From the UHGV virus genome UHGV-0112814: a stretch of DNA of 39,031 nucleotides, one strand, 5' to 3'. The position numbers were made by a program, and so were the translations under genes. The DNA comes from a virus. This document shows positions 1 through 39,031 of this stretch, in pieces (position 1 is the first letter of the stretch; every line of letters begins with the position of its first letter). The notes under the pieces are model-generated. The model did no database searches. It worked only from the letters and a program-made list of their open reading frames with translations, and was not told where the DNA came from.

Positions 1-40
1 CATGGTTCGCGTCAGATCGTTGACAGCCGCACTCCATGAC

Positions 41-85
41 GGGTAAAAAGTGGATAAAATAATTTTACCCACCGGATTTTTACCC
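41..85 (+). repeat. Cluster of GGGTAAAA-type motifs (two direct at 41..49 and 52..60, two inverted ttttaccc at 63..70 and 78..85) directly upstream of the int start codon
   Basis: Same motif family as at the other window end; typical of integrase arm-type binding sites. Confidence 0.5.
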
Positions 86-1467
86 ATGCTCACCGTTAAG
101 CAGATTGAAGCAGCAAAGCCGAAAGAAAAACCATACCGCCTTCTCGATGGTAATGGCCTGTACCTTTATGTCCCTGTATCAGGGAAAAAGGTATGGCAGC
201 TTCGCTACAAGATTGACGGTAAGGAGAAAATCCTGACCGTAGGAAAATATCCGCTAATGACTTTGCAGGAAGCAAGAGATAAAGCATGGACCGCGAGGAA
301 AGACATCTCGGTTGGCATCGATCCGGTAAAAGCGAAAAAGGCTTCGTCTAACAACAATTCCTTTAGTGCCATTTACAAGGAATGGTACGAGCACAAGAAG
401 CAAGTCTGGTCAGTAGGCTATGCAACTGAACTTGCCAAAATGTTTGATGACGACATTTTACCCATCATCGGCGGTCTTGAGATTCAGGATATTGAGCCGA
501 TGCAACTGCTGGAAGTAATCCGCAGATTTGAAGATCGCGGTGCAATGGAGCGAGCAAATAAAGCCCGCAGAAGATGCGGCGAGGTTTTCCGTTACGCTAT
601 TGTCACCGGCAGGGCTAAATATAACCCGGCACCTGACCTTGCAGACGCCATGAAAGGATACCGCAAGAAGAACTTCCCGTTTCTTCCTGCAGACCAGATC
701 CCGGCATTCAACAAAGCACTGGCAACATTTTCAGGAAGTATCGTATCGCTCATTGCGACCAAAGTTTTACGCTACACAGCCCTAAGAACGAAAGAGCTTC
801 GCTCCATGCAATGGAAGAACGTCGATTTTGAAAACAGGATTATCACCATCGACGCCAGTGTGATGAAGGGACGCAAAATTCATGTGGTTCCTATGTCAGA
901 CCGTTTCTTCCTGCAGACCAGATCCCGGCATTCAACAAAGCACTGGCAACATTTTCAGGAAGTATCGTATCGCTCATTGCGACCAAAGTTTTACGCTACA
1001 CAGCCCTAAGAACGAAAGAGCTTCGCTCCATGCAATGGAAGAACGTCGATTTTGAAAACAGGATTATCACCATCGACGCCAGTGTGATGAAGGGACGCAA
1101 AATTCATGTGGTTCCTATGTCAGACCAGGTGGTTGAACTTCTCACTACGCTAAGCTCAATCACCAAACCAGTATCAGAGTTTGTTTTTGCCGGGCGCAAC
1201 GATAAGAAGAAGCCAATCTGCGAGAACGCGGTACTGCTTGTGATCAAACAAATCGGCTATGAGGGTCTGGAAAGCGGTCACGGATTCAGGCATGAATTCA
1301 GCACGATTATGAACGAGCACGAATGGCCTGCTGATGCTATTGAAGTGCAACTGGCACATGCCAACGGCGGATCTGTGCGCGGGATTTACAACCATGCTCA
1401 GTATCTCGATAAGCGCAGAGAAATGATGCAGTGGTGGGCGGACTGGCTTGATGGGAAGGCGGGCTAA
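86..1467 (+). pseudogene. int: P4/IntS-type tyrosine integrase, reading frame broken by an internal 224-bp tandem duplication (N-terminal fragment ends at stop 1007-1009; C-terminal fragment resumes as ORF 1030..1467)
   Basis: ORF 50..1009 and ORF 1030..1467 share the peptide MQWKNVDFENRIITIDASVMKGRKIHVVPMSD; the second ORF continues into a tyrosine-recombinase C-terminus (HGFRHEF ... GIYNHAQY). ATG at 86 (MLTVKQIEAAKP) preferred over the track start at 50. 224 is not a multiple of 3, so the frame shifts. Confidence 0.85.
677..1124 (+). repeat. Perfect direct tandem duplication, 2 x 224 bp (copy 1 677..900, copy 2 901..1124), with 2-bp CC microhomology at the junction
   Basis: The string ccgtttcttcctgcagaccagatcccggc ... 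gttcctatgtcaga occurs twice back to back, identical by eye. Confidence 0.9.
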
Positions 1468-1754
1468 CCAACTTTGCTATATCGCGGACAGCACAACGCC
1501 TGGCAATCCAGTGTAAAGCTTTGTGCGTATGAGTTTTGTATCGTTACGATCCACACTCCCAGAGAACTATACCATATAGCCCACCTACATCGTATAGTTG
1601 CGTTTTAATGTTGCCAATACCTAACGTATTGTGAGATCTTAGTATTCTCTATAGATAAACAAGGTTTAATGATATCATAATTTCAAATTATTATAGTTGT
1701 TTAATTGTTTGATTTTTAAACTCATTATTAAAATACACTATCAAGGTGATTTAA

Positions 1755-2804
1755 TTGAAACTTAATGATATTTTAAAGAAAGAAAATAACAATATAGATA
1801 TATTCAGAGTCATAGCTGCATGTCTGGTTATATGGGGACACGCTTATGTAATATCACCTGAAGTTGGGAAAAGTGATTTTATCACTTACCTTTTACCTCA
1901 CGACACTAGCGGTTCTATTGCAGTTAAAATATTCTTTTTCTTAAGTGGCTTAGTTGTTACTAACTCGATATTAACAACAAATAGTCCAATAAAATTTATT
2001 GCATCGAGATTTTTCAGGATATGGCCTGCTTTATTTTTCACATGTATTATTTGTGCATATATCATAGGGCCAATCGTTTCGACTCTTCCTTTGAAAGAGT
2101 ATTTCAATCCTGAAAACAGGATTTACCTTTATGTGTTTAACAATATATCGATGATAACGCAATACAATCTCCCCGGAGTTTTCTTGGATAATCCACACCC
2201 CATAAGTGTAAACGGTTCTTTATGGACAATTCCTTACGAGGTATATGCATATATAATTCTTTTATGTCTGTTTTGTATTGGGATTTACAAAAAACCGCTG
2301 CTAGTAGCATTTTTGGCTGTGGCAATAACATTTGAGTCTGTTTCTAAAATAAAAATTGTTTTTTTTAGCACACCATCTAACCCAGAAGTGCCAATGCTTG
2401 CGGCATGTTTTGCGTTCGGCTCAGTATTGGCCGCATATAAAAATGTAATTTCAATAACGTTAAAAACCTTTATCTCCCTATGGATATTGTATATTCTCCT
2501 TATTGATAACCCATATTCAATGTATCTATCCTATGCGGCAATCTTTATTGCCATACTATACTTATCAAAAACAAACACACTATTAAAGATTAAGCCAAAA
2601 GCTGACATATCCTATGGTGTGTATCTTTGGGGCTTTCCTGTTCAGCAAATCATAGCAATGTATTTTCTTAATAAAGGGGTGCTTTTTAACCAAATCTTAT
2701 CGATTTTTATATGCATAGTTCTTGGTTGGGCGTCATGGCACTTGGTAGAGAAAAGATTTATAAATCTCGGAAAGTTGGTGGGGAACCGCTTATCAGGTAA
2801 ATAA
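1755..2804 (+). CDS. oac: Integral membrane acyltransferase (acyltransferase-3 family), O-antigen acetylase-like serotype-conversion moron; TTG start
   Basis: 349 aa, highly hydrophobic multi-pass protein with an N-terminal IDIFRVIAACLVIWGHAY-type motif typical of acyltransferase-3 enzymes; very AT-rich by eye; sits between int and tailspike as oac does in Sf6-type phages. RBS aggtga upstream of TTG. Confidence 0.7.
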   Translation: MKLNDILKKENNNIDIFRVIAACLVIWGHAYVISPEVGKSDFITYLLPHDTSGSIAVKIFFFLSGLVVTNSILTTNSPIKFIASRFFRIWPALFFTCIICAYIIGPIVSTLPLKEYFNPENRIYLYVFNNISMITQYNLPGVFLDNPHPISVNGSLWTIPYEVYAYIILLCLFCIGIYKKPLLVAFLAVAITFESVSKIKIVFFSTPSNPEVPMLAACFAFGSVLAAYKNVISITLKTFISLWILYILLIDNPYSMYLSYAAIFIAILYLSKTNTLLKIKPKADISYGVYLWGFPVQQIIAMYFLNKGVLFNQILSIFICIVLGWASWHLVEKRFINLGKLVGNRLSGK

Positions 2805-2855
2805 ATCTACCCCCCCCACACAATTCCTGTGAGAACGTGGTGGTGGGGGTAGGTA

Positions 2856-5126
2856 TTACAAGCAAGCAGTTAACGGGAATGCAGTGTCTCCAATGTTAAG
2901 GACGACAGCAGCGATATCAATAGCAAAAACAGTACCGACAGGAAGGTTAATATTGACAATAACCTTTTCTTGTGTATCTAGAGAAGCACCTGGCGACATT
3001 TGGGCCACCCTGAAGTGAATAAACCTTCTGTAAAAATTCCCATCGTTTGGTATTGATACTACATTGTCACCCGAGCTTGCAAACCCTCCATTAACAGAAA
3101 CTACTGTTCCAGTGATGCCGCCAACTCCGCCAGCAGTAAACGTTTTAGCATAAAAAGAAAGGCACACATTACACCCCTGAATTTTGGCAGGAGAGATATC
3201 TAATTCAAATTGTAGCTGAAGATATGTTTGATCTGTAGCAGGTGATGTGCATAGTAACTGGAATGCATTTCTTTGCATATCTAATCGGTTTCGCTCATAT
3301 CCTCCTGCTGCAGTATTATTAGTAGTCCTTTTAGTTAGAGTAAAGCTACCTCCGGTTCCATCTGAAACGGCAGTCAACCCGCTTATTCCGAAATTACTAT
3401 TTATAGGAGCAGCGCCAACATATCCATTAATAATATCTGATGCATCCGAAATCTTCACTAGATTTTTTACTCTGCTTTTATATGAAGGCTTGTAAACAGA
3501 TGCGTACTCAGGCTCAATAAGATATCCAATATTATTTAAATTACCATCGTATCTAATAGTGCCAATATCCCAGTTTTTGTGACCAATAATTTCAGGAGAT
3601 TCAATTAACGGGTAGTGATAATGCACAAATGTTGCTTTATCAATAGACAAATCCTCTAATGCTAAATTATTTCCAAATATGAAATATCTACTTACGTGTT
3701 CAGTATTACCCATATTTGCATAACTACCATTTACTGTTAATCTTTTTACAAATGTAGATGCACCATTATCAACCATTCCGGCACCGCCATCGGCCTTACT
3801 GCCTGTAAAATATGGGTCATCATCATATGATAGCTGGATGCATTTAATTACCTCCCCTTCCTCTGGGCCAAATGGTTTCTCTGAGTAGAAATTTAGAAGT
3901 GTTACATCTGCACAACCAGCTGAAATGATAACATCAGTAAGCATGCCATTGTTTGCTCCTCCTTCAATAACCGTGCGCCAACCGCTAATCCAGTAAGCTA
4001 TCCCGCCACGCGACCAGCCAACACCTTCCACCTTATTGTTTGTTGCCGTCAACAATGTACTCCAAAGATCAACAACTTTACCAAGAACATGATCTTCGTA
4101 GTAACCAGGGCAGCGCACAAAGTTTCGTGTATTCACCCTATCAGCTATGAAATCGGTATGGGCCTCGAACAAGCAATCCCTTACCGATACCCTCCAGTTG
4201 TTAAATTCGGCATTAACAGCCCAGGAGCCATCTCCGCCAAACGCACGGAATTCGCAATTAGATACATCGCAATAAGTTACCCAATGAGCAAAATTTATTG
4301 CATATCCTGATGTTGCCCCCCCCTTAAAAACAGCACCTTCAATACTGTAGTGCTTATTAAACGGGGTCTTACCAGTAGCTCCGTTGTAGTCTCCGCTTAG
4401 ATCATATGGGCCCATGTTAAAGGCGTTTCCTGAGCCTAAGTAATGGAATACAGTTCCTTCGCAGATAATTCTTACCGGTCTGGTGAAATGCATGTCTTTA
4501 GAATATGAGATTGTACCTGGTGGGAATAGCACTCCAACAGGAATTCCATCAGTATTAGGTATCGCGTTCACATACTCCACGAAAGCGTTGATCGCATCAG
4601 TAGAGTCAGTACCATCCATCTTTACACCAAAGTCCTGTGGTGTGATGAAATCCTGATTTTTATCGTGTTGCGTCCTGTGTATTGCACCAATCGCAGGGAG
4701 GTGAACACCAATCAGCGCATCACCCTTTGTATCGTCATCGATATAACTGCCATCTTGAGCAAGCTGGTCTTTGAAGTCAGGACCAAACTGATCAGGGTCA
4801 TACTTCAGCACGTTAGGGAAATAGAACTGCTGAGCACCGTACGCATCATAAACAGCCATAGAATGGCCTTGCACAGTTACGAACTTGGCAATCTGTCCGT
4901 TATATACGGGGTAACCAGCAGCGTTAATGATGATTGGTTGCGATACAGGAACGTGAGAGCCGTCTTCGTTCTCTACATAAACCTGAATCTGGTTTTCAGG
5001 ATTTACCGGGTCAGTGTCAATTTTACCGATATAAATTTTGCCATTGGCTACGGCTTTAAAAGAACGAGCCATAGTGAAGAGTTGCGAAGGCATGCTGACC
5101 ACAACATTTGCGGTGATATCTGACAT
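2856..5126 (-). CDS. Tailspike protein with P22-type N-terminal head-binding domain and a divergent receptor-binding body
   Basis: N-terminus [59 protein letters not shown] closely matches the P22 gp9 N-terminus. Start moved to ATG at 5126 (the track start at 5174 adds 16 aa). Confidence 0.9.
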
Positions 5127-5151
5127 TTCATTGCTCCAGACGAATGATATG

Positions 5152-5174
5152 ATGCAATCATGATGTGATTGCAT
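5152..5174. promoter_or_regulatory. Candidate operator: inverted repeat atgcaatca-tgatg-tgattgcat between the tailspike start and mnt
   Basis: Perfect 9-bp half-sites with a 5-bp spacer in the 120-bp divergent intergenic region. Confidence 0.4.
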
Positions 5175-5247
5175 ACCGAAATGGTACTATTGAGTATTTA
5201 TCCAGTAGGTTACGATGCCATTCCACCCAACTGGTGAGACATCAAGG

Positions 5248-5508
5248 ATGTACAGCAAATACGACGAGGCGCAGTTTCACTTGAGACTTCCGCATGAACT
5301 CCACGCGAAAATTAAGCAGCGTGCGAAGATGAATAACAGGTCGCTGAACTCAGAGATAATTGCAGCGATTGAAGAATCATTGGCTAAACAAAGCTCTGCA
5401 TCAGTTTACATTGACGATGCAGAGCGTATGGCAGAACAACAATCTGATATGGTTAAGAAAATTGTCTTTGATACGCTCAAGGAGCTATATAAAAAAGACA
5501 GCAACTAA
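5248..5508 (+). CDS. mnt: Mnt-like ribbon-helix-helix repressor
   Basis: FHLRLPHELHAKIKQRAKMNNRSLNSEII ... DDAERMAEQQSDMVKKIVFDTLKELYKK aligns with P22 Mnt; transcribed opposite to the late genes as in P22. Start ambiguous between 5215 and 5248. Confidence 0.8.
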   Translation: MYSKYDEAQFHLRLPHELHAKIKQRAKMNNRSLNSEIIAAIEESLAKQSSASVYIDDAERMAEQQSDMVKKIVFDTLKELYKKDSN

Positions 5509-5597
5509 CCATCCATTACGGAGGATTTATGCAAAGAGATATGATGAATATTGCATTCTACATATTTGGTTTTTGCACTTTCCTGGTGTTTGCAAAG

Positions 5598-7595
5598 CTA
5601 TTCTGACAACGCATCAGACTTAGCCCCCTGAGTCAGAGCGTTAATGGCCTTTTGTGCCTGCTGCATGGCTTTCTCGAACACTGTTGATCCGCGTGGGGTG
5701 TTTGCCATTCGGAGCATTGCATTTCTGAATGGCTCGCTCTCATAGGCGCGAGTAAGAAGTCCGTAGCTTACTGCTGCGCCAGTTGTTGCAGGGTTCATTG
5801 CCGTCCCATACCCAATAATGAACGGGATGGTTTGCTGCCCTGTTGGTGTTGTTACTGCCGCTTTTGCAGCCTGCTGCGTGGATTGAAGGTAGTTTTTCAA
5901 TCCTTTCAGATAAGCGGCTTCCTGACCTTTAAATGTGATGCCAGTCTGGTTTTGCAGGATGTTAAGCTGTCGAAGGAACTGGTCAGGGGAACCACCTGAT
6001 TTCTCCATCGCCTTTCCAATGATGCCATTGCGCATTTGCGCCCTGCCAACACGACCAACTGAGTTATACAGCGTCTTAATTTCCGATTTGTTCTTGCTGA
6101 ATAGCATGTTGTTGACAACTTCCGGCGTCAGGTCGCCTTTCATGAGAACATTCTTCAGCCTTGTATTCTTTAATTTCGCCGCTTCGTCAGCGTAGACGGC
6201 ATTGGCCTGCTGATATTTACGGAGAGTATCGTTGCCAAGATTCTGACCAATGGCACCATTGATATCGTCTGTCATCGCCTTGTAAACGCGCTGAATGGCA
6301 GCATCGGAACGGTTTGGTAACACTGGTCGTTCCCCCTTCACGTCCATTCTGAACTGGCTGCGCAGATCGCTTAATTGCTTCAAGTCCAGATTTACCGGAC
6401 CATCAGGACCAGCATTGCGAATAAGCTCATCACGATAGGATTGAAGTTTTGAAATCGTCTCGTTATCAGCGACCTTACCAAGCTTCTGCAGGTTAGATAT
6501 TTCTGTATCAATCTGCTGAATTGCTCGAGCAGGCTGGATATTGACTCCCGCCATTGCATTCTGAACCTGCTCAAGACGGTTCCCTGCAGCACGACGAATT
6601 CCTGATGTTTTCGCTTTAAGGCTGTCAATAACAACAGCTGGATCATACTCACAGAATTTATCAGCAAATCTCTGCACCAACTGGCTTCTCGCTTCCTGTT
6701 GCGTTGCTCTCATTCCGCTTGTGCCAGCCAGGGGGATATTTTCCGCTGTCGTCTGCGCCATTTTCCCGACGCGGGAAGTTGGTTGTAACAGGTCTGTGGT
6801 GTGCAGAGGGACTCCTTCACGCTCTGCAAATCTGATAGCCTGCTGCGCTTCTGGCGCAATAGCACCGCGAACGCCACGATAAGCAGCACCTAATCCACGT
6901 CCAGCAGCGTTAATAGCGCCGCCTGCCAGAACTCCAACACCTAAATCGGTAGCGAGTGCTTCCGCATCATCTTTCGCACTATTTACAGCAAGTGATCCAA
7001 CTGCGTTTTCTGCTAGAAGGCGAGTTGCCCCATGAGCAATTCGACCAGCAAGTGTTGGTGCCTGTACCGACGCTCTCTCAACGCCAGCAGGAGTGAGGTA
7101 AGGCAATGCTTCAGCAAATACCCTTCCCTCTGTCGTTTGTGGAGTCAGCGCACCTTGCTGAAGGCCAAAGTCCTGCTCTAATCCCTGCGTTGTTACTCGT
7201 GGTGCTGGTTGATATGTACCATCGCCAATGCCGAGTTTACCGCCAGCCCAAGCCGCCGCGCTTGTTACAGCATCGGCAACTGATGCAGGTATGTTTGCCA
7301 CGTTCACGCCAGCCTGCACCAGTCCACGACCAGTCTCTTTTACTGCTTCACCAAGATCAGGCATAAATCCATTTTGCTGTGGTTGTTGCTGTGCTACTGG
7401 TTGTTGTGTCTCCACTGGCTGCACAGATGGCAATGGATAGGCAGCATAGAAAGCTTGCTTAGCCTGCTCTGCATTTTCTCCGGCTTGCGGGGCCACGACT
7501 TCATTGAAGTATTGCTCCTGAGCCTGCGCTTTTTGTTCTGGTGCTAACGCCTGATACTGTGGAGAGGCGATAACATCTTTCCATGCTTTAGCCAT
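5598..7595 (-). CDS. DNA ejection/internal virion protein (P22 gp16-like)
   Basis: 665 aa; position and order (gp7-gp20-gp16 upstream of the tailspike) as in P22; Ala/Gln-rich. Confidence 0.7.
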   Translation of the reverse strand: MAKAWKDVIASPQYQALAPEQKAQAQEQYFNEVVAPQAGENAEQAKQAFYAAYPLPSVQPVETQQPVAQQQPQQNGFMPDLGEAVKETGRGLVQAGVNVANIPASVADAVTSAAAWAGGKLGIGDGTYQPAPRVTTQGLEQDFGLQQGALTPQTTEGRVFAEALPYLTPAGVERASVQAPTLAGRIAHGATRLLAENAVGSLAVNSAKDDAEALATDLGVGVLAGGAINAAGRGLGAAYRGVRGAIAPEAQQAIRFAEREGVPLHTTDLLQPTSRVGKMAQTTAENIPLAGTSGMRATQQEARSQLVQRFADKFCEYDPAVVIDSLKAKTSGIRRAAGNRLEQVQNAMAGVNIQPARAIQQIDTEISNLQKLGKVADNETISKLQSYRDELIRNAGPDGPVNLDLKQLSDLRSQFRMDVKGERPVLPNRSDAAIQRVYKAMTDDINGAIGQNLGNDTLRKYQQANAVYADEAAKLKNTRLKNVLMKGDLTPEVVNNMLFSKNKSEIKTLYNSVGRVGRAQMRNGIIGKAMEKSGGSPDQFLRQLNILQNQTGITFKGQEAAYLKGLKNYLQSTQQAAKAAVTTPTGQQTIPFIIGYGTAMNPATTGAAVSYGLLTRAYESEPFRNAMLRMANTPRGSTVFEKAMQQAQKAINALTQGAKSDALSE

Positions 7596-30589: not shown

Positions 30590-30630
30590 TTAAGCCATCA
30601 GCAGGACGCACTAACCACCATGAAGGTGAT

Positions 30631-30660: not shown

Positions 30661-30858
30661 AGCATTCAAAGCAGAAGTCTTTTGGATTGGATGAATGCGC
30701 AGGCTGATGCTCGACCAATGTATAAACAGCGCTCATGGCAAGCAGTAACCAATCTGCGCCTCAAGACAGCGTCACTGGTAGTGCGGGCGCTCTAACCAGT
30801 AAGCCGGAGTTCAGCGCCGGCCATCCAATCACCAAAGCTAACTGACAGGAGAATCCAG

Positions 30859-31185: not shown

Positions 31186-31193
31186 GGTGGCCC

Positions 31194-31295
31194 ATGAAGA
31201 ACAGCATCAAGTGCCCGGTATGCGGTCGTGACTTCGATCCACGCACTCCGGTCTGCCACATCAGCAAGTATCACCAGTCAGCGAAGAACTGCTAG
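31194..31295 (+). CDS. Small Cys-rich (zinc-ribbon-like) ORF just downstream of N
   Basis: Own translation MKNSIKCPVCGRDFDPRTPVCHISKYHQSAKNC; RBS gaggtgg; below track cutoff. Confidence 0.3.
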   Translation: MKNSIKCPVCGRDFDPRTPVCHISKYHQSAKNC

Positions 31296-31354
31296 CTGGA
31301 GAAGATACGCGATGCCCGGCGGCAATATTTCAAAGTAACAGCGAGTGAGGTTCG

Positions 31355-31696
31355 GTGATGGAAAATAAAACGGCTAACGGGATGTACGTACTGCGTGGTG
31401 AGCTGAAAAAGGGACTGATAGCGGAGCTGGTAAAGGCATACGACCAGCTGACTCAGGAGTCAGAAAAATTAAAGATCCTCGGACTCAGGTATAACACCCC
31501 TCGACGCATTGTTTATGGCTTTATGTATGAGGTTGCAGCATTAACCGTCAAGGAAATTATGTTTAAAACTGAGGGTGGCTTTTACATCCCACAGGATGAC
31601 TTCGAATCGAGCGACGATATCGATTCATTAGCCAAAGAGATCATCGATGTAATTGACTGTAATGGCGCATTCCTTGAGCGCCTTCTTAAGGAGTAG
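31355..31696 (+). CDS. Hypothetical early-left protein (acidic C-terminus)
   Basis: 113-aa ORF with no recognisable motif; first sizeable gene after N. Confidence 0.55.
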   Translation: MMENKTANGMYVLRGELKKGLIAELVKAYDQLTQESEKLKILGLRYNTPRRIVYGFMYEVAALTVKEIMFKTEGGFYIPQDDFESSDDIDSLAKEIIDVIDCNGAFLERLLKE

Positions 31697-31697
31697 C

Positions 31698-31836
31698 CAT
31701 GAAAAAACTGTATGAAAAACTCCCGTTCGTAGTGCAGGGGGTCATTTTGGGTCTGCTTATCACTGCGGCCATTCTTCTGTCTACCCCGCCAGTCGTCATG
31801 TTTCTTCGTTGGTGGTTCAGAGTTTGGGGTGTCTGA
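31698..31836 (+). CDS. Small hydrophobic membrane peptide (46 aa), translationally coupled to the upstream gene
   Basis: Own translation MKKLYEKLPFVVQGVILGLLITAAILLSTPPVVMFLRWWFRVWGV; strong aaggag RBS; ATG 2 nt after the upstream stop. Confidence 0.4.
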
Positions 31837-31911
31837 TCGGCGCAAGCATTACGCACAGAACGAATCGAGCGGGTCGAGTGGCCTGCGGTGAATAAACAAA
31901 GGGGTGAGGGT

Positions 31912-32094
31912 ATGGAAAATTTGGACAATGAACTGAAAAGAGTAGTTCAGGAACTGGCCAATGAAGAAGGCATCAGTTTTGCCGATGCCGTGGACGTTTC
32001 GATTAAGACGCTTCGTTACGAAATTCAGCACAGAAAGTCTTTTAATGGGTCGCCTGACCCCGATGGAGGCGCATCAGGAGTAGAGGTACGCTGA
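31912..32094 (+). CDS. Hypothetical small protein
   Basis: ORF-track 31888..32094; internal ATG at 31912 (MENLDNELK) preferred. Confidence 0.4.
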   Translation: MENLDNELKRVVQELANEEGISFADAVDVSIKTLRYEIQHRKSFNGSPDPDGGASGVEVR

Positions 32095-32233
32095 CCAAAT
32101 ATCGAAGCGGCAAACAAAAATCGCTGGGGTTTGACGATTGGTGTAACTGGATAGATACGGAACTTGGTGGGATAAATAACAGGTAACTTAAGCGTATTTA
32201 CTTTCGCAGCAAACCACTTATTTGAGGTGATAT

Positions 32234-32683
32234 ATGGAAGAACAAGCAAACAAGATTCTCGTAGAACTACTGCAAAAAGCCAGTAATGGAATAGACGCGG
32301 CTGTTTCATTCAGCCAGGCACAGATTCCTGATGTTGTTCATCAGTTGCTGCTATGGAATATGGTTGACAGTCTGATTAAAACATTAATGGCCATTCTAAC
32401 AATCCCACTGGTTTTCTGGTTTATGAAGAAGCAGTGCCAAAGAGTTGAGACAGGTAAAATCGGTGATGAAGGATATTCATGGGAGAAAGGAAATCCCAAA
32501 TACATGCCGACAATGGTTTGGGATAGCAAAGGTGATATTAATCTTCTTATCATGCCATTGGTTGTAGTTTTGACTCTGTGGGGGATTTTTATTATTGGTG
32601 TAGTAACCAATATGACTTGGTTAAAAATTTGGCTGGCCCCAAAGCTTTACCTTATCGAATATGCAGCATCATTGGTTAAGTAA
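32234..32683 (+). CDS. Two-TM membrane protein, moron-like (candidate superinfection exclusion/abortive infection)
   Basis: 149 aa with two hydrophobic segments (LIKTLMAILTIPLVFWFM; INLLIMPLVVVLTLWGIFIIGVV); preceded by a 139-bp gap with a possible promoter and followed by a terminator. Confidence 0.6.
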   Translation: MEEQANKILVELLQKASNGIDAAVSFSQAQIPDVVHQLLLWNMVDSLIKTLMAILTIPLVFWFMKKQCQRVETGKIGDEGYSWEKGNPKYMPTMVWDSKGDINLLIMPLVVVLTLWGIFIIGVVTNMTWLKIWLAPKLYLIEYAASLVK

Positions 32684-32688
32684 TTTCA

Positions 32689-32712
32689 GGCCGCATAGTC
32701 GGCCTTTATTTT
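32689..32712 (+). terminator. Intrinsic terminator after the membrane-protein moron
   Basis: ggccg-catagt-cggcc stem followed by tttatttt. Confidence 0.5.
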
Positions 32713-32729
32713 GGGCATAAACAACAGAG

Positions 32730-33026
32730 GTGAATATGAAATATACGCCAGGTCCATGGAAGTGGTGGACAAGTAACAGCTTCCTGCGATTAAGCAGCCA
32801 GGCTACAGGTAAAGATGGTGGAGTAATTGACTCTTATGTGATGCGTGATGGTCATCCTTCACTGCGCGTTAGCAAAGAAGATATGGCTCTAATAGCTGCA
32901 GCTCCAGATTTACTCGAAGCTCTGCAAGATTTGCTTATTCGTGTCGCTGATGATGAAGAGTATGGGCCTGAACATGCAATTACTCGGGCTCGCGCAGCAA
33001 TCAGTAAGGCTCTTGGGGAGGAGTGA
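32730..33026 (+). CDS. Hypothetical protein
   Basis: 98-aa ORF; stop overlaps the next start. Confidence 0.5.
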   Translation: MNMKYTPGPWKWWTSNSFLRLSSQATGKDGGVIDSYVMRDGHPSLRVSKEDMALIAAAPDLLEALQDLLIRVADDEEYGPEHAITRARAAISKALGEE

Positions 33027-33280
33027 TGGGTAATTTAGATAACGGTGGTTATGCATTCCCTATTCCGAATGCAGATTTTCAGACGTTTGCACCACACACT
33101 GTTGATGAATATAGGCGCATTCAATCAGGAATGACATTACGTGATTACTTCGCGGCAAAGGCTATGCAAGCAATGATTAGCAATCCATCGATTATCGATA
33201 ATGATTCTGATGGAGCTGTTAATTATGCAGCAAGCGCTGCATATAAGTTTGCAGACGCAATGCTCAAAGCTCGCGAATAA
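33023..33280 (+). CDS. Hypothetical protein
   Basis: 85-aa ORF, translationally coupled to the upstream gene. Confidence 0.5.
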   Translation: MMGNLDNGGYAFPIPNADFQTFAPHTVDEYRRIQSGMTLRDYFAAKAMQAMISNPSIIDNDSDGAVNYAASAAYKFADAMLKARE

Positions 33281-33375
33281 GCACTGTGTATTCATTCCAA
33301 CGAGTGAATACACGGAGCAATGTCGCTCGTAACTAAACAGGAGCCGACTTGTTCTGATTATTGGAAATCTTCTTT

Positions 33376-33401
33376 GCCCTCCAGTGTGAGGGCCTTTTTA
33401 T
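33376..33401 (+). terminator. Intrinsic terminator in the early-left operon, upstream of the cIII-like gene
   Basis: gccctc-cagtgt-gagggc perfect stem followed by ctttttatat. Confidence 0.55.
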
Positions 33402-33465
33402 ATGCATACCAATAACGCTTCACTCGAGGCGTTTTCGTTATGCAATCAAACAGAAGGAGCATCCT

Positions 33466-33636
33466 ATGCAACAGTTCGCTATTGCAGGGGCGGCATCGGT
33501 TCGCCCTTTCAACCCGATTTTATCGGTGCAGCATTCACGAAAAAATATTTTAACCGGAGCAGACTTTAAACAACCTCGCGTTAAGAGCTTGCTGGATCGT
33601 CTTGTTGAGTTTCTGAATCAAAAGGTACAGCCATGA
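33466..33636 (+). CDS. cIII: CIII-like small protein (possible FtsH inhibitor)
   Basis: 56 aa, MQQFAIAGAA ... KSLLDRLVEFLNQ loosely resembles lambda CIII; RBS aaggag. Confidence 0.45.
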   Translation: MQQFAIAGAASVRPFNPILSVQHSRKNILTGADFKQPRVKSLLDRLVEFLNQKVQP

Positions 33637-33797
33637 AAAAACCAACTTACGAGGAACTGGAAGAAGCCCTGAAAGAGCTTAGAAGAATAGCTTTCGCCAG
33701 ACGCACTAACTCTCACAACTGCGGCCCATTTCAGTACTCGGATTTATGCGAGGACATCATTGAGGTAACTCAACTGATTAAGGTCGTTAAGCAATGA
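33633..33797 (+). CDS. Small hypothetical protein (54 aa)
   Basis: Own translation MKKPTYEELEEALKELRRIAFARRTNSHNCGPFQYSDLCEDIIEVTQLIKVVKQ; start overlaps the cIII-like stop. Confidence 0.35.
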   Translation: MKKPTYEELEEALKELRRIAFARRTNSHNCGPFQYSDLCEDIIEVTQLIKVVKQ

Positions 33798-33878
33798 GTA
33801 TTGCGGATACATGGTCAGACGAAGAATTCATTCGTCAGATGAACAAAATGCTCAATCAGCACAAAGAACAGGATAAAG

Positions 33879-34190
33879 ATGATGATTCTGACTCTGAATG
33901 ATAAGCGTGAAATATCGCAAATAATCGCAAGTTTTACTGATGAAGATTACGAACGAATCAACAGTGAAGTTGATCGCCTCTGCAAACGTTGCGACCCAAT
34001 AAGCGAAATGCTTCGCTCATATAAACCAGATGAACACACTAAGGACGCTATCGACTGGCTGGAAGATGATGACTGTAACTATCAGGAAAAAGCCGCTGAA
34101 TGGTTCTGGGATGCAATAACCGAAAGAGTTAAGGCTGAATATGCCTTCGCAATATTCAAACGCAGACACATTTTTGGAGAAGCAGCATGA
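33879..34190 (+). CDS. Hypothetical protein
   Basis: 103-aa ORF immediately upstream of recT with stop/start overlap. Confidence 0.5.
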   Translation: MMILTLNDKREISQIIASFTDEDYERINSEVDRLCKRCDPISEMLRSYKPDEHTKDAIDWLEDDDCNYQEKAAEWFWDAITERVKAEYAFAIFKRRHIFGEAA

Positions 34191-35098
34191 GCAATATCGT
34201 TGAATTCGTTAAACAGCAAGAGCAGTTATTCTGCGGAGCATTGACTGAACAGACGGTGACATGGGCTAAGGAAAGCCAGTTTGCAATTCAGTATTTCCAG
34301 AAAAATGATTACCTGGCTAAAACTGCACTGGCAAATCCAACCAGCGCACAGAACGCCATCATCAATGTTGCGGCGATCGGCATCACCTTAAACCCGGCTA
34401 GCAAACTGGCTTATCTGGTTCCGCGCGACGGCATGGTGTGCCTTGATATCAGCTATATGGGATTACTACATATTGCAATGGAGTCTGGTGTTATCTCATG
34501 GGGTCAGGCAAAGCTTGTTCATGCTAACGATACTTATGAGTCAAACGGACTTGATAAAGCACCAACCCATAAATACAACGCCTTCGGTGATCGTGGCGAT
34601 ATCGTTGGTGTTTACTGCACAGTTAAGACGCCAGCAGGTGATTATCTAACGGAAGAGATGAGTCTGGCTGAAATTGAGGCTGTAAGGAAAACAAGCAAGG
34701 CGGCATTCAGCGATAAAGGACCATGGGTAAATCACTGGAATGAGATGGCGCGAAAGACGGTCGTAAAGCGTGCAAGCAAGTATTGGCCTAAGGCATCACG
34801 TCTTGATAGTGCTATTCACGTACTAAACGAAGAAGAAGGTGTATGGACTGAACCAGTTATGCCGCACAAATCAGAGGAAGATATACGCGAAGATGAACGG
34901 AAACGCCAGCAGGAAATAACGGATAAAGCACAACTTCTTTGTGATGAAATGGCTCAGGCTGAAAACATGGATGATTTGAAGAGATATTTTGCAGAAGCAT
35001 ATCGCCTGACATCTGGAATGAAATTGCAGCAGAACATACAAGCCATTTACATAGAATGCAAAGCGAAACTGGAGGTTGCCAGTGAGCAAACTATATGA
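34187..35098 (+). CDS. recT: RecT-family single-strand annealing recombinase
   Basis: 303 aa; pattern INVAAIGITLNP ... LAYLVPRDG ... ISYMGLLHIA ... WNEMARKTVVKR typical of RecT/Redbeta proteins. Confidence 0.8.
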   Translation: MSNIVEFVKQQEQLFCGALTEQTVTWAKESQFAIQYFQKNDYLAKTALANPTSAQNAIINVAAIGITLNPASKLAYLVPRDGMVCLDISYMGLLHIAMESGVISWGQAKLVHANDTYESNGLDKAPTHKYNAFGDRGDIVGVYCTVKTPAGDYLTEEMSLAEIEAVRKTSKAAFSDKGPWVNHWNEMARKTVVKRASKYWPKASRLDSAIHVLNEEEGVWTEPVMPHKSEEDIREDERKRQQEITDKAQLLCDEMAQAENMDDLKRYFAEAYRLTSGMKLQQNIQAIYIECKAKLEVASEQTI

Positions 35099-35564
35099 AA
35101 TTGCCAATGAATACGCAAAATTGATGGATTCAGATTTAGAACCAGAGATGATTGCTGACACAATAGAAGGCATGGAAGGAGAATTTACCGATAAAATAGA
35201 ACAACTTCTTTCCGTCATTAAAAATGAATCTGGTTATGCCGAACGCCTCAAGGAAGAGGCAAAGTCACTGAATGAGCGAGCCGCAGTAATTCAAAATAAG
35301 ATTGACAGCATCAAATCATATATAGCGTCATCGCTTGAAATGGTTGGCAAGAAAAATATTCGAGCAGGTATTCACCAGGTAACAATCCGCAAACCGTCAG
35401 AAATTGTAGAAATAATCGACTCAAGCGCCCTTCCTCCTGAATACGTTGAGTTTGAAACGACAATTAAAGCCGACAAACTGGCAATCAAGCACCAACTAAA
35501 AGCAGGAATAAATATTCCCGGTGCTCAACTCAAGGTTGGGAAACCTTCACTTCTTATCAAATAA
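35082..35564 (+). CDS. Gp157-family protein (accessory to recombination genes); GTG start
   Basis: ORF-track 35076..35564; GTG at 35082 has the better ggagg RBS spacing. Confidence 0.55.
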   Translation: MSKLYEIANEYAKLMDSDLEPEMIADTIEGMEGEFTDKIEQLLSVIKNESGYAERLKEEAKSLNERAAVIQNKIDSIKSYIASSLEMVGKKNIRAGIHQVTIRKPSEIVEIIDSSALPPEYVEFETTIKADKLAIKHQLKAGINIPGAQLKVGKPSLLIK

Positions 35565-35575
35565 CGGTATCGCCT

Positions 35576-35890
35576 ATGAAAAAGACTCCATGGGAGAAAT
35601 GGGAAGTCGATTTCTTGCGCGAAGTAGCGGCGACAATGCCAGTTGAAGTTATCGCTGAAAAACTGGGAAGGACTGAAAAAGCAGTAATGGCGAAAGCAAC
35701 AAGGATTGGCGCTGACATTGTTAGCCGACTTCGTGGAAGACGATGGACAAGAGCCGAAGTATCACTTTTCGGTAAGTTCTCCGCAGAAGAAATAGCAATT
35801 GCAACCTGCCGCTCAATTTATTCAGTAAGAGCTATGCGATACAAGCTAAAAAAACTCGATGAAGAAAGAGCAGGCATACGAATAAATTAA
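35576..35890 (+). CDS. Hypothetical protein with two internally similar ~40-aa segments
   Basis: 104-aa ORF; the two halves share W..EV..L...EEIA..R..AV.A pattern. Confidence 0.5.
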   Translation: MKKTPWEKWEVDFLREVAATMPVEVIAEKLGRTEKAVMAKATRIGADIVSRLRGRRWTRAEVSLFGKFSAEEIAIATCRSIYSVRAMRYKLKKLDEERAGIRIN

Positions 35891-35906
35891 CATGGAGTAA
35901 TTAACA

Positions 35907-36188
35907 ATGAAGCTAAACATCGACCTCGGAAAATACGTTATTACCGGAACCAAACACGACCTGATTCTTAGCGAAAGAGGAATTATCAAAGAAGGCGAGA
36001 ATGCAGGGAAAGAAACACTAAGTCGTATCGGTTATTACAGCAAGTTTGAGCATCTGGTTAAAGAGTTATGCAACCGTGAAATCCTGTTATCTCAGGCGCA
36101 GACGCTACAGGATATTCAGCAGCATATCGAAACTTTAGGTATGTCACTTAGCATGGCTGTTGACCAGTTCGTGGAGAGTAAATCATGA
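35907..36188 (+). CDS. Hypothetical protein
   Basis: 93-aa ORF in the early-left operon. Confidence 0.5.
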
Positions 36189-36349
36189 GAGGACTTGCAT
36201 ACAATCCCGGCATTCTTCCGGCAGAAATGATTATTCGCCAACGCGTAAAGCCAATGCCATCGAGAGAGGAATTGCTTAAGAGAAAGAGTTTCGGTTCTGT
36301 TAATGACAACAAATATCTGAATGCTATGTGGCGGAGTGGGAAGAAATGA
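36185..36349 (+). CDS. Small hypothetical protein (54 aa)
   Basis: Own translation [54 protein letters not shown]; ATGA overlaps on both sides. Confidence 0.3.
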
Positions 36350-36936
36350 AACAAATGACACTAATTGAGATGGATGGCTTTCTGAAAGGTAAATGCATCC
36401 CACGAGATTTAAAGGTTAACGAAACAAACGCTGAATATCTGGTGCGTAAATTTGCTGAAGCGGAGGCCAAGTGCGCGGCGCTGGCTTCGGAGAATGCGGG
36501 GCTGAAGGCTGCGTTTGACAAGCCTCAAGCCTATCTATCCTGGCACACTATCCCGCCAACATGGGAAGACCCTCTCCCGTGCGGTGAGTATCTTGATGTT
36601 CACGATGATGCTGGCCACAAGAATTCCGACGGTACTGATTGCTGGCCGGTATATGCCAAGCCAGAAATCAACACCCCGGCCACCGACGCTTTCCTGGCTG
36701 AAGTACGGGCGCAAGCCCACAAGGAAGGCGCTCACTTTGTTGCCAACCGAACGCTGGCTGCATGGGAGGCTGGTTTTATTGATGATACTGCGAAGAACGC
36801 CGCTGATATTGCCCGGATGATTCTTACCTCTACTGAGTTTATGGCTAATGCGCCGGAAGGCGATTTCGATCGCTCGTTCGCTGATGGTGTACTCGAAGAC
36901 ATCGCCGCCCAGCTTCGCAAAGGAGCCTCGCTATGA
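36346..36936 (+). CDS. Hypothetical protein
   Basis: ORF-track 36328..36936; ATG at 36346 overlaps the upstream stop. Confidence 0.5.
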
Positions 36937-37145
36937 GAAAATATCCGAGAGTTGAAGGTGTCTTGTCTAAAAAGAAAAACACTTCCGCGAAATGTCGTTG
37001 TGGCGCAGTGGCTAAATATAAAACCACGGTGCAGGTAGATATTTTTCGTGGCGATGATGAGGTTTTCTGGTCATGTGCCGAACACAAAAATGACTGTGTG
37101 TTTCTGCTAGATGGCGCAGTCGAGAGCAAAGGAGCATCCCAATGA
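36933..37145 (+). CDS. Small Cys-rich hypothetical protein
   Basis: 70-aa ORF with CRCG ... C ... H ... C spacing suggestive of a zinc-binding fold. Confidence 0.5.
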   Translation: MRKYPRVEGVLSKKKNTSAKCRCGAVAKYKTTVQVDIFRGDDEVFWSCAEHKNDCVFLLDGAVESKGASQ

Positions 37146-37423
37146 CAGCACTCAACAAACAGGCGCTGCGCCAAACAGCTGAGAAAGCTCAAGAGCATGG
37201 CGTGTTCAACATGGATATACATTCACAAACCGTTCTGGCGCTGCTGGATGAGCTGGAAGCCGCAGAGAAGCGGATTGCTGAGCTGGAGCGTAAAGAACAG
37301 CACAGTGACCGACAGTCAGTAATTGATGCGTTGGCTAGTTCGGGTGAGGAATGGAGTGATATCGAAGAATACATGCAGAAGTGGGACGCGGAACGCGCCG
37401 CCGCAGCCGGTAAAGGAGAGTGA
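37142..37423 (+). CDS. Hypothetical coiled-coil protein
   Basis: 93-aa ORF; heptad-like LLDELEAAEKRIAELERKE. Confidence 0.5.
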   Translation: MTALNKQALRQTAEKAQEHGVFNMDIHSQTVLALLDELEAAEKRIAELERKEQHSDRQSVIDALASSGEEWSDIEEYMQKWDAERAAAAGKGE

Positions 37424-37424
37424 A

Positions 37425-37706
37425 ATGGCTAAATTTACAGACGTACACGACCTGTTAACTGCTTATCAAAAACAGGCCCGAAAAGTACCGCCTAAGGGAG
37501 TTTACGCATCAAAGCAGCGACAACAGGAAGTCCAGGCGGCGCACACGAGAAAGGTAATGCGCCAGCGTAAGCGCTCTGTTGGAAAGTCTAACAAATTAGG
37601 ATTTCGTCGCCGGGCAGAAACTACGGCGGCGCTGATTTGCGAAATGAATTTTTGGGCGCTGGTGTGTCGTTCAAACCGCAAGAATTCCATCCAGGGTGAG
37701 GGATAA
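37425..37706 (+). CDS. Hypothetical basic protein
   Basis: ORF-track 37323..37706; internal ATG at 37425 has RBS aaaggagag and starts 2 nt after the upstream stop. Confidence 0.45.
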   Translation: MAKFTDVHDLLTAYQKQARKVPPKGVYASKQRQQEVQAAHTRKVMRQRKRSVGKSNKLGFRRRAETTAALICEMNFWALVCRSNRKNSIQGEG

Positions 37707-37708
37707 CC

Positions 37709-38455
37709 ATGAGCACTATTACCAAAGAATTAACCAAAGAGCAGTTACAGCAAATTATCGAAACTGACCACGTTCAATGCGGTGAGGCTTCGGCGCTGGC
37801 GCGTATCGCGCTGGCATCGCTCGAAGCGGAGCCTGTGGCGTGGGCGCACAGATTAATCAACAAGCGTAACGGAGTCGTTCACCCTTGGGTTTACGGTAGC
37901 GCAGAGGCGTGTCCAAGCGAGGGGGATATCTTCAATATTGAGGTAATGCCGCTCTACACCGCCCCGCCAGCGCCGGTATCTGTGCCCGCTACGATGGAAA
38001 TTGATGATGACTTTGACAGCGCGTTTGAACACGGAAAAGCTGTCGGCTGGAACGCCTATCGCGCCGCCATGCTTCAGGCCGAACCTGTAAGTAATAGTGA
38101 TGAGTTACCGCTGGACTATCTGCAAGGTCACAAAGACGGCCTTGAATGGGCTGCACAATTGGCAGAAGCCAATCATCCGCAAACAGGTGACTGGTTGTAC
38201 GACGACCAAATCGATCTTGCCAGGGCGATTCGCAAAGGTCCGGATATGCCTACTGTTCAGGGTGGCAACTCTCCGGTGATTCCAGATGGTTGGGTGATGG
38301 TGCCGGTTGAGCCTACGATAGCCATTCTAGACGAATTCGATTCGATTATTGATTACGGCGCTGAGGATTCTAAGGATGCGTGGAGTCGTCTTCTGGCAGC
38401 CGCTTGGATTAAATCGCTGCCAGCAGCGCCGCGGCAGGAGGTTAACCGTGGCTAA
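37709..38455 (+). CDS. Hypothetical protein
   Basis: 248-aa ORF, acidic, Pro/Ala-rich linker. Confidence 0.55.
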   Translation: MSTITKELTKEQLQQIIETDHVQCGEASALARIALASLEAEPVAWAHRLINKRNGVVHPWVYGSAEACPSEGDIFNIEVMPLYTAPPAPVSVPATMEIDDDFDSAFEHGKAVGWNAYRAAMLQAEPVSNSDELPLDYLQGHKDGLEWAAQLAEANHPQTGDWLYDDQIDLARAIRKGPDMPTVQGGNSPVIPDGWVMVPVEPTIAILDEFDSIIDYGAEDSKDAWSRLLAAAWIKSLPAAPRQEVNRG

Positions 38456-38555
38456 CCTGCAACTTGCCGTCAAAGGTGAATAACAATCCTCGCACTCGCG
38501 GGGATTTCTTTTATCTGAACTCGCTACGGCGAGTTTTGCTTTATGGAGATGATAA

Positions 38556-38723
38556 ATGCACTTCCGAGTCACAGGTGAATGGAATGGAGAACCATTCAAC
38601 AGAGTTATCGAAGCAGAGGACATCAACGACTGCTATGACCACTGGATGATATGGGCGCAGATAGCACATGCAGACGTAACCAATATTCGAATTGAAGAAC
38701 TGAAAGAACACCAAGCCGCCTGA
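38556..38723 (+). CDS. Small hypothetical protein (55 aa) ending inside a terminator hairpin
   Basis: Own translation MHFRVTGEWNGEPFNRVIEAEDINDCYDHWMIWAQIAHADVTNIRIEELKEHQAA. Confidence 0.3.
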   Translation: MHFRVTGEWNGEPFNRVIEAEDINDCYDHWMIWAQIAHADVTNIRIEELKEHQAA

Positions 38724-38737
38724 TGGCGGTTTTTTAT
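38714..38737 (+). terminator. Intrinsic terminator upstream of xis
   Basis: agccgcc-tgat-ggcggtt stem (one G.U pair) followed by ttttttatt. Confidence 0.55.
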
Positions 38738-38780
38738 TGCCTGATTTGCAGGTTCGATTCCCTATTCGGAGATAGCACTC

Positions 38781-38981
38781 ATGCAACACGAACTACAACC
38801 TGATTCACTGGTTGATTTGAAATTCATCATGGCTGATACTGGCTTCGGTAAGACCTTCATCTATGACCGGATTAAGTCCGGCGACCTGCCTAAAGCCAAA
38901 GTTATCCACGGACGAGCAAGATGGTTATATCGTGACCATTGTGAATTCAAAAATAAGCTCTTAAGCCGCGCCAATGGGTAA
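38781..38981 (+). CDS. xis: AlpA-family excisionase / DNA-binding protein
   Basis: 66 aa; TGFGKTFIYDRIKSGDLPKAKVIHGRARWLYRD fits the AlpA/Xis HTH pattern; last gene before the int end of the element. Confidence 0.6.
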   Translation: MQHELQPDSLVDLKFIMADTGFGKTFIYDRIKSGDLPKAKVIHGRARWLYRDHCEFKNKLLSRANG

Positions 38982-38998
38982 AATAGCGGGTAAAATAT
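38977..38998 (+). repeat. Two direct GGGTAAAATA repeats with 12-bp period, immediately after xis (candidate Int arm-type sites)
   Basis: gggtaaaatagc-gggtaaaatatt; the first overlaps the xis stop codon. Confidence 0.5.
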
Positions 38999-39031
38999 TT
39001 TTCACATCTAAAAAACACCATTCCAATCAAT

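Follow-up and report, generated by a model that had tools for sequence, protein, structure and literature searches.

Closest described systems

P22-like phages are lambdoid by nature. The element described here occupies the 39,031-nucleotide virus genome UHGV-0112814 (hereafter the window, meaning the whole stretch of DNA that was analysed) and is an essentially complete, ordinary P22-like (Lederbergvirus-type) lambdoid temperate prophage. It is likely that this prophage stands at the 3' end of the argW tRNA-Arg(CCT) gene in an E. coli chromosome from a metagenome, and that its integrase gene, intS, is inactivated as written by a tandem duplication. Regulation and structure are fully accounted for by known modules, and only the intS duplication is unexpected. 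In the recombination module of KplE1, HK620, Sf6, and CUS-3, the transcription of intS and torI is uncoupled, and int and the gene of the recombination directionality factor (RDF) lie at opposite prophage ends, with argW as the integration site (PMC2951348).

Among the five reference genomes compared in full, CUS-3 (CP000711) is the closest, with a nucleotide (nt) similarity of ~38% over the whole window, followed by Sf6 (31%), HK620 (23%), P22 (14%), and lambda (7%). CUS-3 displays, as deposited, the same attL-int...attR layout at argW, and its TerS, TerL, portal, scaffold, coat, and gp4 are 95-100% identical in amino acids (aa) to those of the window. However, the endosialidase tailspike, neuO, and the ant/mnt region are proper to CUS-3, its immunity, N, and replication genes and its gp16/gp20 are unlike those of the window, and its Q gene has 519 nt, whereas the window carries a 624-nt gene of lambda type. 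Sf6 (NC_005344) shares Int (380 of 385 residues after de-duplication), Xis (66/66), the position of the attP core, an oac-type gene between int and the tailspike, TerL (99.8% aa), and gp16, gp7, gp14, gp10, and the N-terminal half of gp20 at 92-98% aa. In contrast, the coat, scaffold, and portal of Sf6 are of another type (no coat match, portal 55%), the acyltransferases are just 33% identical, Q is of the phage 21 type, Erf is found instead of RecT, and the immunity differs.

The phage mEp043 (NC_019706, genus Aguilavirus) resembles the window at ~95-97% nt in cI, cro, a 98-aa open reading frame (ORF), the O-like initiator, the primase/helicase, and part of the nin region. Nevertheless, it is not a Lederbergvirus; it possesses tail-fibre genes and other virion genes, and it further differs in a thrW-type integration site, the presence of Erf, and the lack of an HNH gene between ninB and dam. 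Lambda (NC_001416) shares N (91.7% aa), cII (99%), Q (99.5%), ninB (97.9%), and identical boxB sequences, with pR', the oop terminator, and the pRE/paQ boxes conserved; however, just 7% of the window aligns with it, and its cI, cro, operators, O, endolysin, cIII, virion genes, and att/int are unrelated or distant. P22 (NC_002371) has the virion gene order and the tailspike head-binding domain in common with the window, together with gp10 and gp14 (93% aa) and the Q-pR'-tR' stretch (95% nt), whereas coat (29%), portal (35%), and gp16 (34% aa) diverge, the att site is another one, and the window carries no sieA, sieB, ant, or gtrABC. Finally, the RefSeq names of close homologues, IntS and TorI, point to KplE1 (CPS-53) of E. 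coli K-12. KplE1 uses the same argW site with int and the RDF gene at opposite ends, but it is described as a defective remnant that lacks a cI module (PMC2951348), while the window holds a whole phage with a duplicated intS.

P22, Sf6, HK620, and CUS-3 are mutually 13-43% similar at the nt level, and the similarity of the window to these four phages (14-38%) falls inside that range. This relatedness is comparable to that found among accepted members of Lederbergvirus. An identical deposited genome was not found: phage records cover neither half of the window beyond ~64%, and none of the complete E. coli genomes covers more than 72% of its first 25 kb. The prophage is a new mosaic combination within the well-studied P22-like group, of a kind already known.

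Integration site and boundaries

The recombination features are the following.

1-39031: prophage body; counted to the outer ends of both att cores (attL and attR), the prophage measures 39,161 bp, of which 39,031 fall here
86-1467, plus strand: intS-type tyrosine integrase gene, split (phrog_1, E 8.5e-52 and 3.1e-33)
677-1124, plus strand: perfect duplication in tandem, with two copies of 224 nt each (677-900 and 901-1124)
38781-38981, plus strand: excisionase/RDF gene (phrog_66), 66/66 identical to TorI, Sf6 gp18, and HK620 HkaC

The 16-bp att cores, CTGCAGGGGACACCAT, flank the element as direct repeats 75 nt upstream and 23 nt downstream of the window, and are absent from the window sequence itself; the window lacks 91 bp at the left end of the prophage and 39 bp at its right end. 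In the source contig, the end of tRNA-Arg(CCT) lies 76 nt ahead of window position 1, while the right-hand core begins 24 nt past the final window base. Two assemblies in ENA contain the element: NODE_51 of ERZ651920 (163 kb) equals window positions 1-11009 at 100% identity, and scaffold_27 of ERZ28576098 (227 kb) equals positions 27709-39031, 1-731, and 848-4467, also at 100% identity, with scaffold coordinates that give a co-linear prophage of equal length.

The preliminary description held the element to be self-contained, a view that further phage genes in the flanking sequence would have contradicted. The source contigs bear it out, as E. coli genes are found on both sides: tRNA-Arg(CCT), yfdC, mlaA, yfdF, fadL, yfcZ, fadI, and fadJ on the left, and homologues of dsdC, dsdX, dsdA, emrY, emrK, evgA, and evgS on the right (Pfam content and E. 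coli alignment). Identity to E. coli chromosomes is 98.2-98.7% across these flanks, and within 10 kb on either side neither phage genes nor a second att site were seen. E. coli prophages at argW show tRNA-Arg and then intS on one side, and torI and then host genes on the opposite side, and the same core occupies the same position in Sf6, HK620, and CUS-3. The present locus follows this arrangement, with CTGCAGGGGACACCAT at the 3' end of argW and at both prophage ends, intS next to attL, and a TorI-type RDF gene next to attR. Since int and xis stand at opposite ends in the IntS/TorI class, a window that extends from the integrase gene to the excisionase gene represents an integrated prophage and not an opened circle.

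In the window, 49 nt precede the first listed ORF, whose GTG is at position 50, and 50 nt follow the xis stop codon, which suggests that it was probably cut by a pipeline at gene calls +/- 50 nt, leaving the att cores just outside. Upstream of xis, the 16 nt at 38746-38761, TTGCAGGTTCGATTCC, are those of the argW T-arm immediately 5' of the att core (source locus L012, 9810-9825), a match with a chance expectation of ~2e-5. In the window-Sf6 alignment, this stretch falls within the region annotated in Sf6 as the putative pI promoter.

The integrase gene and its tandem duplication

The duplication in intS was identified with Tandem Repeats Finder (period 224, 100% matches) and with a second repeat search. 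Because 224 is not a multiple of 3, the second copy shifts the reading frame. ORF A (86-1009, 307 aa) comprises Int residues 1-272 followed by an unrelated out-of-frame tail of 35 aa, and ORF B (1030-1467, 145 aa) holds the catalytic C-terminal part with HGFRHEF and the C-terminal tyrosine region. When one copy is deleted, a 385-aa IntS is recovered, identical to Sf6 Int in the proportion given above and to IntS of E. coli TB06053 at 383 of 385 positions; the intact IntS of the IntS-TorI module is, therefore, not encoded as written but reappears on removal of one copy. The integration module, which the preliminary description counted among the modules covered, is present with both genes but not intact, int being split by a duplication which had gone unmentioned. 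IntS serves both integration and excision in this module and, consequently, the prophage as written should be excision-defective, unable to leave the chromosome unless the duplication collapses.

The two assemblies bear on whether the duplication exists in the reads. ERZ28576098 carries a 100-N gap at the repeat, with the left contig reaching 731 (677+54) and the right one resuming at 1072 (1126-54), so that both breaks lie exactly k-1 = 54 nt inside the repeat borders. Breaks at this distance imply a de Bruijn cycle with k=55 and, hence, reads containing the repeat-closing junction, and the break positions of this second assembly argue against a quirk of a single assembler. It is likely that the duplication is real in the read data. 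In the public gene collection, the frameshifted ORF A occurs on a single contig. An origin as a leftover from overlap trimming of a circular contig was rejected, given that the element is linear within the 163-kb chromosomal contig.

Module content and mosaic composition

ORF listing and profile searches with PHROGs and Pfam, whose support is mostly very strong for all modules, reveal one continuous phage gene set across the window. The int and acyltransferase genes are on the plus strand, the virion cluster through cro, except for the Mnt/Arc repressor gene, on the minus strand, and the genes from cI at 29454 through xis on the plus strand. The virion synteny TerS-TerL-portal-scaffold-coat-gp4-gp10-gp26-gp14-gp7-gp20-gp16-tailspike runs on the minus strand from 19196 down to 2856 (PHROG; tblastn against P22, Sf6, CUS-3, and HK620), and the lambdoid early order, xis...recombination genes-cIII-N-cI/cro-cII-replication-nin-Q-lysis, is likewise present. 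At gathering thresholds, Rfam returned no family in the window, and ARAGORN found no tRNA gene within it.

The preliminary description had assigned every essential module to the window, and all of them are there in the order it gave; this coverage nevertheless does not hold for integration and excision, as intS is frameshifted in the sequence as written. Its picture of a hybrid between a P22 virion and lambda regulation is sound in outline, in that the phage is P22-like in the broad sense with N/nut/cII/Q of lambda type, but it goes too far. The virion gene order is indeed that of P22, whereas the coat is not (29% identical to P22 and 95% to CUS-3). Segments of lambda-like DNA do alternate with other segments (blastn, per reference), and N, nutL/nutR, cII-oop, Q-pR', ninB, and ninE/F are lambda-like, although at 93-99% nt instead of the identity that had been claimed. 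The holin gene S, listed among the identical segments, reaches just 73% nt and 79% aa, and lambda-type regulation does not extend to cI, cro, and the operators, which are of mEp043 type with ~22% aa to lambda. Since S, cI, cro, and O are not of lambda type, calls of identity to lambda made by eye need per-gene checking.

A head of CUS-3 type, ejection proteins like those of Sf6, the immunity and replication genes of the mEp043 type, and N/nut/cII/Q of lambda type make up the usual mosaicism of these phages. Together with a new acyltransferase/tailspike pair they form a new combination, the significance of which beyond cataloguing is small.

Immunity, antitermination, and replication

The regulatory and replication features, from the replication genes to N, are listed below.

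25683-27563, minus strand: Toprim primase/helicase (phrog_239/phrog_277 pair; Pfam Toprim_2)
27671-28531, minus strand: O-like initiator (phrog_239/phrog_277 pair), 39% aa to lambda O
28524-28670, minus strand: orf48/hkaW-like ORF of 48 aa, read as an ORF
28662-29106: nutR-cII-oop segment, 98.9% nt to lambda (blastn)
28702-28995, minus strand: cII, 96/97 residues identical to lambda (99% aa)
28726-28753, strand opposite to cII: oop terminator (terminator scan)
28973-28986, within the cII region: cII box of pRE
29074-29090 and 29099-29106, minus strand: nutR boxB and boxA, both with the exact lambda sequence
29115-29345, minus strand: cro (phrog_4/phrog_35 pair), 21.1% aa to lambda Cro
29381-29434: three OR sites, TTACC-N4-GGTAA
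29454-30140, plus strand: cI, S24 repressor (PF00717 Peptidase_S24), 21.9% aa to lambda cI
30155-30451, plus strand: membrane ORF of 98 aa, co-transcribed with cI (N-terminal hydrophobic segment; phrog_10450)
30463-30479: terminator after the cI operon
30548-30589: two OL sites overlapping pL (pL from promoter scan)
30596-30685: nutL segment, 95.6% nt to lambda (blastn)
30630-30637 and 30645-30661, plus strand: nutL, with a boxA-like TGCTCTTA (1 mismatch) and a boxB of exact lambda sequence
30830-31172: N segment, 93.0% nt to lambda (blastn)
30859-31185, plus strand: N (phrog_271), 99/108 aa (91.7%) identical to lambda N

The immunity region (29115-30589) is 95.6% identical in nt to mEp043, as is the replication module, which is of the mEp043/ES18 type. 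Palindromes of the form TTACC-N4-GGTAA are enriched (9 found versus 0.57 expected). Given that cI, Cro, and the operators all differ from those of lambda, the immunity is not of the lambda type. The N-nut system, in turn, has lambda specificity, with a lambda-type N and both 17-nt boxB sequences exact. Two short pieces made up of intergenic DNA or small ORFs are also lambda-like. The 98-aa ORF, which directly follows cI and ends at a strong terminator, is common to mEp043 (F850_gp49), and it occupies the position that rexAB has in lambda.

Late control completes the lambda-type part of the regulation, as lambda-type Q, pR'/qut, and a downstream terminator are all present.

22022-22050, minus strand: tR' terminator (terminator scan)
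22055-22792: segment with Q and pR', 96.8% nt to lambda (blastn)
22084-22112, minus strand: pR' (promoter scan; aligned with lambda)
22155-22778, minus strand: Q, 206/207 residues identical to lambda Q (99.5% aa)
22478-22491, plus strand: paQ-like cII box (match to TTGC-N6-TTGC)

Virion, tailspike, and conversion genes

The virion cluster and the genes around the tailspike comprise the following features.

1755-2804, plus strand: O-antigen acyltransferase-like conversion gene (PF01757 Acyl_transf_3, E 2.3e-23; phrog_3333 O-acetyltransferase, E 1.2e-35)
2856-5126, minus strand: tailspike, 756 aa (PF09008, E 2.8e-67; P22-type head-binding domain at residues 1-113)
5215-5508, plus strand: Mnt/Arc-family repressor (PF03869 Arc, PF11423 Repressor_Mnt, phrog_795)
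5598-7595, minus strand: gp16 ejection protein (phrog_770), 97.7% aa to Sf6 over its whole length
7595-8983, minus strand: gp20 ejection protein (phrog_917), 92.4% aa to Sf6 over residues 1-236
8993-9688, minus strand: gp7 ejection protein (phrog_598), 96.8% aa to Sf6 over residues 1-190
9691-10146, minus strand: gp14 (phrog_651)
10146-10784, minus strand: tail needle gp26 (phrog_1219)
10788-12206, minus strand: gp10 (phrog_578)
12216-12677, minus strand: gp4 (phrog_637), 98.7% aa to CUS-3
12888-14141, minus strand: coat (PHROG), 95.0% aa to CUS-3, 28.8% to P22, no Sf6 match
14160-15053, minus strand: scaffold (PHROG), 98.6% aa to CUS-3
15144-17342, minus strand: portal (PHROG), 98.9% aa to CUS-3, 34.7% to P22, 55% to Sf6
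17344-18759, minus strand: TerL (PHROG), 99.6% aa to CUS-3
18756-19196, minus strand: TerS (PHROG), 100% aa to CUS-3

Judged by these sequence identities, the procapsid and packaging module is of CUS-3 type. The acyltransferase shares 33% identity with Sf6 Oac along its full length (344 aa, E 3e-33), and its gene, which is AT-rich (GC 0.37-0.40) and begins with a TTG start codon, lies between int/att and the tailspike in the position and orientation of oac in Sf6. This Oac-like membrane acyltransferase probably modifies the O-antigen in the lysogen. In the tailspike, PDB sequence matches are confined to residues 1-192, where they correspond to the N-termini of the Sf6 and P22 tailspikes, whereas the receptor-binding domain (residues ~200-756; window 2856-4500) has no Pfam or PDB sequence match. 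A 40-mer from this domain found no match in IMG/VR, and a search at the protein level yielded two IMG/VR contigs that encode related tailspikes (98% and 80% aa). A prophage in the complete genome of E. coli TB06053, which is also located at argW, carries the acyltransferase-tailspike cassette at 99.2% identity, and 76% of this cassette is covered at 98.3% in the complete genome of E. coli MB46. The acyltransferase gene and the tailspike receptor domain travel as one cassette, the receptor domain being rare.

The Mnt/Arc repressor stands in the immI position without an ant gene, as an immI remnant. The gp26 needle has 212 aa versus 233 aa in P22 (702 nt, common to CUS-3 and HK620) and 282 aa in Sf6, and part of its gene (10406-10540) has no nt match in any of the eight reference sequences.

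Alternative explanations

The reading proposed above, an argW prophage with an intS inactivated by duplication, has to be weighed against several others, of which the first concerns the duplication itself. The prophage could be fully functional, with the duplication being an assembly artefact or confined to a minor fraction of the cells, and with an intact intS in the prevailing genome. The coverage of the contig, just ~14.5x according to its name, would fit such a situation, as would the unresolved repeat behind the 100-N gap of the second assembly, the absence of the junction 40-mer from IMG/VR and from the GTDB representative genomes, and the apparently intact rest of the prophage. However, a de Bruijn assembler cannot make the repeat-closing junction without reads that contain it, the breaks k-1 nt inside both borders require a branch and, thus, junction k-mers in the reads, and the 2-nt CC microhomology at the duplication joint is typical of real slippage duplications. 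This explanation is, therefore, rather unlikely. A decaying cryptic prophage with further hidden lesions beyond int is more doubtful still: one gene is already broken, and further lesions might lie in promoters, the pac site, or small genes, but most genes with a known function have a PHROG match that spans nearly the whole ORF, the virion proteins share 92-100% identity with their counterparts in plaque-forming phages, and neither insertion sequence (IS) elements nor other split genes were seen in the window.

It is extremely improbable that the lambda-like and P22-like parts were brought together by a chimeric misassembly of two phages. The source is a metagenome assembly, and near-identical segments shared among lambdoid phages can mislead assemblers; nevertheless, the second assembly is 100% identical wherever it was read and its scaffold coordinates give exactly the expected span, the mosaic joints coincide with gene and module boundaries, and the lambda-type alleles of N, cII, Q, and ninB recur among the sequenced phages and prophages of the P22-like and lambdoid groups. 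As for a free, circularly permuted virion genome, the placement of int and xis at the two extremities, as if a circle had been opened between both genes, would be in keeping with it. However, the 116 nt that join xis to int in Sf6, attP core CTGCAGGGGACACCAT included, are missing from the window, and the source contigs run on into E. coli genes on both sides. The flanks already refute this possibility, to which practically no likelihood is left, and an opening of the circle between xis and int was rejected on the same two grounds.

Some points weigh against the favoured interpretation of an argW prophage with an inactivated intS. The two assemblies may share one read set and, hence, perhaps do not represent independent biological evidence. 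Moreover, the duplication is known from assemblies, and its copy number and its fraction in the population may differ from what they show. The specificity of the repressor, the substrate of the acyltransferase, the receptor of the tailspike, and the inducibility of the prophage have all been deduced from sequence, and about ten small ORFs have no role assignment.

Proposed life cycle and implications

The mechanism outlined here is inferred as a whole from homology. The LexA-like S24 repressor, of the mEp043 immunity type, would hold pL and pR off through the TTACC-N4-GGTAA operators. Upon cleavage of the repressor, the lambda-type N would work at the nut boxB sites identical to those of lambda, and the O-like initiator and the Toprim primase/helicase would replicate the DNA. 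The lambda-type Q would then read through tR' into the lysis genes and the CUS-3-type headful packaging and head module, and the virion would be completed by Sf6-type ejection proteins and a serotype-specific tailspike. Lysogeny would be set up by the lambda-type cII, acting through the pRE and paQ boxes, and by the cIII-like protein. Finally, collapse of the duplication through recombination between its two copies would give the intact 385-aa IntS, making excision possible again.

In this regard, the intS duplication may be a reversible lock and not a dead end, since RecA-mediated collapse would restore a competent phage; it offers a clean natural example of a lesion able to lock a prophage yet revert. 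If the prophage is locked, induction would, speculatively, give only in situ replication and packaging, with no complete phage genomes expected, and headful packaging would proceed from pac leftwards via attL into the argW-yfdC-mlaA-fadL side of the chromosome. Lateral transduction, which has reportedly been described for P22, would be a parallel for such packaging of host DNA. In P22 prophages, replication and packaging take place in situ and precede excision (PMC8575938).

The cassette at 31358-32094, downstream of N, and the 98-aa membrane ORF, neither of which matches a known family, could be exclusion or defence functions. The stretch directly after N and the slot next to cI in its operon are classical hotspots for exclusion genes and morons. 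The joint reading in which the intS duplication is a reversible lock and, separately, this cassette and the 98-aa ORF are undescribed exclusion or defence functions is very unlikely to hold as a whole.

Early-left operon

The early-left genes between N and xis are all on the plus strand. From 33466 to 38723, the assignments rest on PHROG matches, with Pfam tags taken from the gene table of the source contig.

31358-33280, plus strand: ORFs with no assigned family role, of 112 aa, 45 aa (one predicted transmembrane segment), 60 aa, 149 aa (membrane), 96 aa, and 84 aa
33466-33636, plus strand: cIII-like gene (PHROG)
33633-33797 and 33879-34190, plus strand: ORFs
34187-35098, plus strand: RecT (PHROG)
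35082-35564, plus strand: Gam-like/Gp157 (PHROG)
35576-35890 and 35907-36188, plus strand: ORFs
36185-36349, plus strand: phrog_1117 ORF (Pfam DUF2737 from the source-contig gene annotation)
36346-38455, plus strand: ORFs
38556-38723, plus strand: homologue of lambda orf55, 54/55 residues identical

Ea-type ORFs are among the genes between the Gam-like/Gp157 gene and xis. Ten small ORFs were scanned without a match in Pfam, PADLOC, or NCBIfam, and the first three early-left ORFs (112, 45, and 60 aa; 31358-32094) have no PHROG match either. The DNA that carries this three-ORF cassette (31190-32240) was found in one of 50,697 phage records (Wanchaivirus PDP110P2) and in three of 5,426 complete E. 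coli genomes.

Lysis genes and nin region

The remaining features lie between TerS and the replication genes, and include the lysis cassette (20410-21630) and the nin region (22790-25653).

19199-19441, minus strand: DUF2560-like ORF (phrog_571/phrog_518 pair)
19669-20211, minus strand: Rha-family regulator (phrog_571/phrog_518 pair)
20410-20877, minus strand: Rz (phrog_13/phrog_7/phrog_126 set of the lysis cassette)
~20463-20648, minus strand: Rz1 lipoprotein embedded in Rz (reading frame, lipobox VVSAC)
20874-21323, minus strand: GH24-type endolysin (PHROG), 21% aa to lambda
21307-21630, minus strand: lambda-family holin S (PHROG), with the identities to lambda given above
before RusA in the nin region, minus strand: ORF of 44 aa
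22921-23283, minus strand: RusA (PHROG)
23280-23570, minus strand: DUF1364/HNH-like ORF
23563-23775, minus strand: nin-region ORF
between the 23563-23775 ORF and Dam, minus strand: ninF and ninE, 91.1% and 91.7% aa to lambda
23773-24110: ninE/F segment, 94.4% nt to lambda (blastn)
24114-24644, minus strand: Dam methyltransferase (PHROG; PADLOC orphan methyltransferase)
24641-25168, minus strand: HNH endonuclease (PHROG)
25165-25605, minus strand: ninB, 97.9% aa to lambda
25165-25682: ninB segment, 94.8% nt to lambda (blastn)
25630-25653, minus strand: tR2-like terminator (terminator scan)

Because ninB and dam abut directly in mEp043, the HNH ORF between them in the window (24606-25168) looks like a homing-endonuclease insertion.

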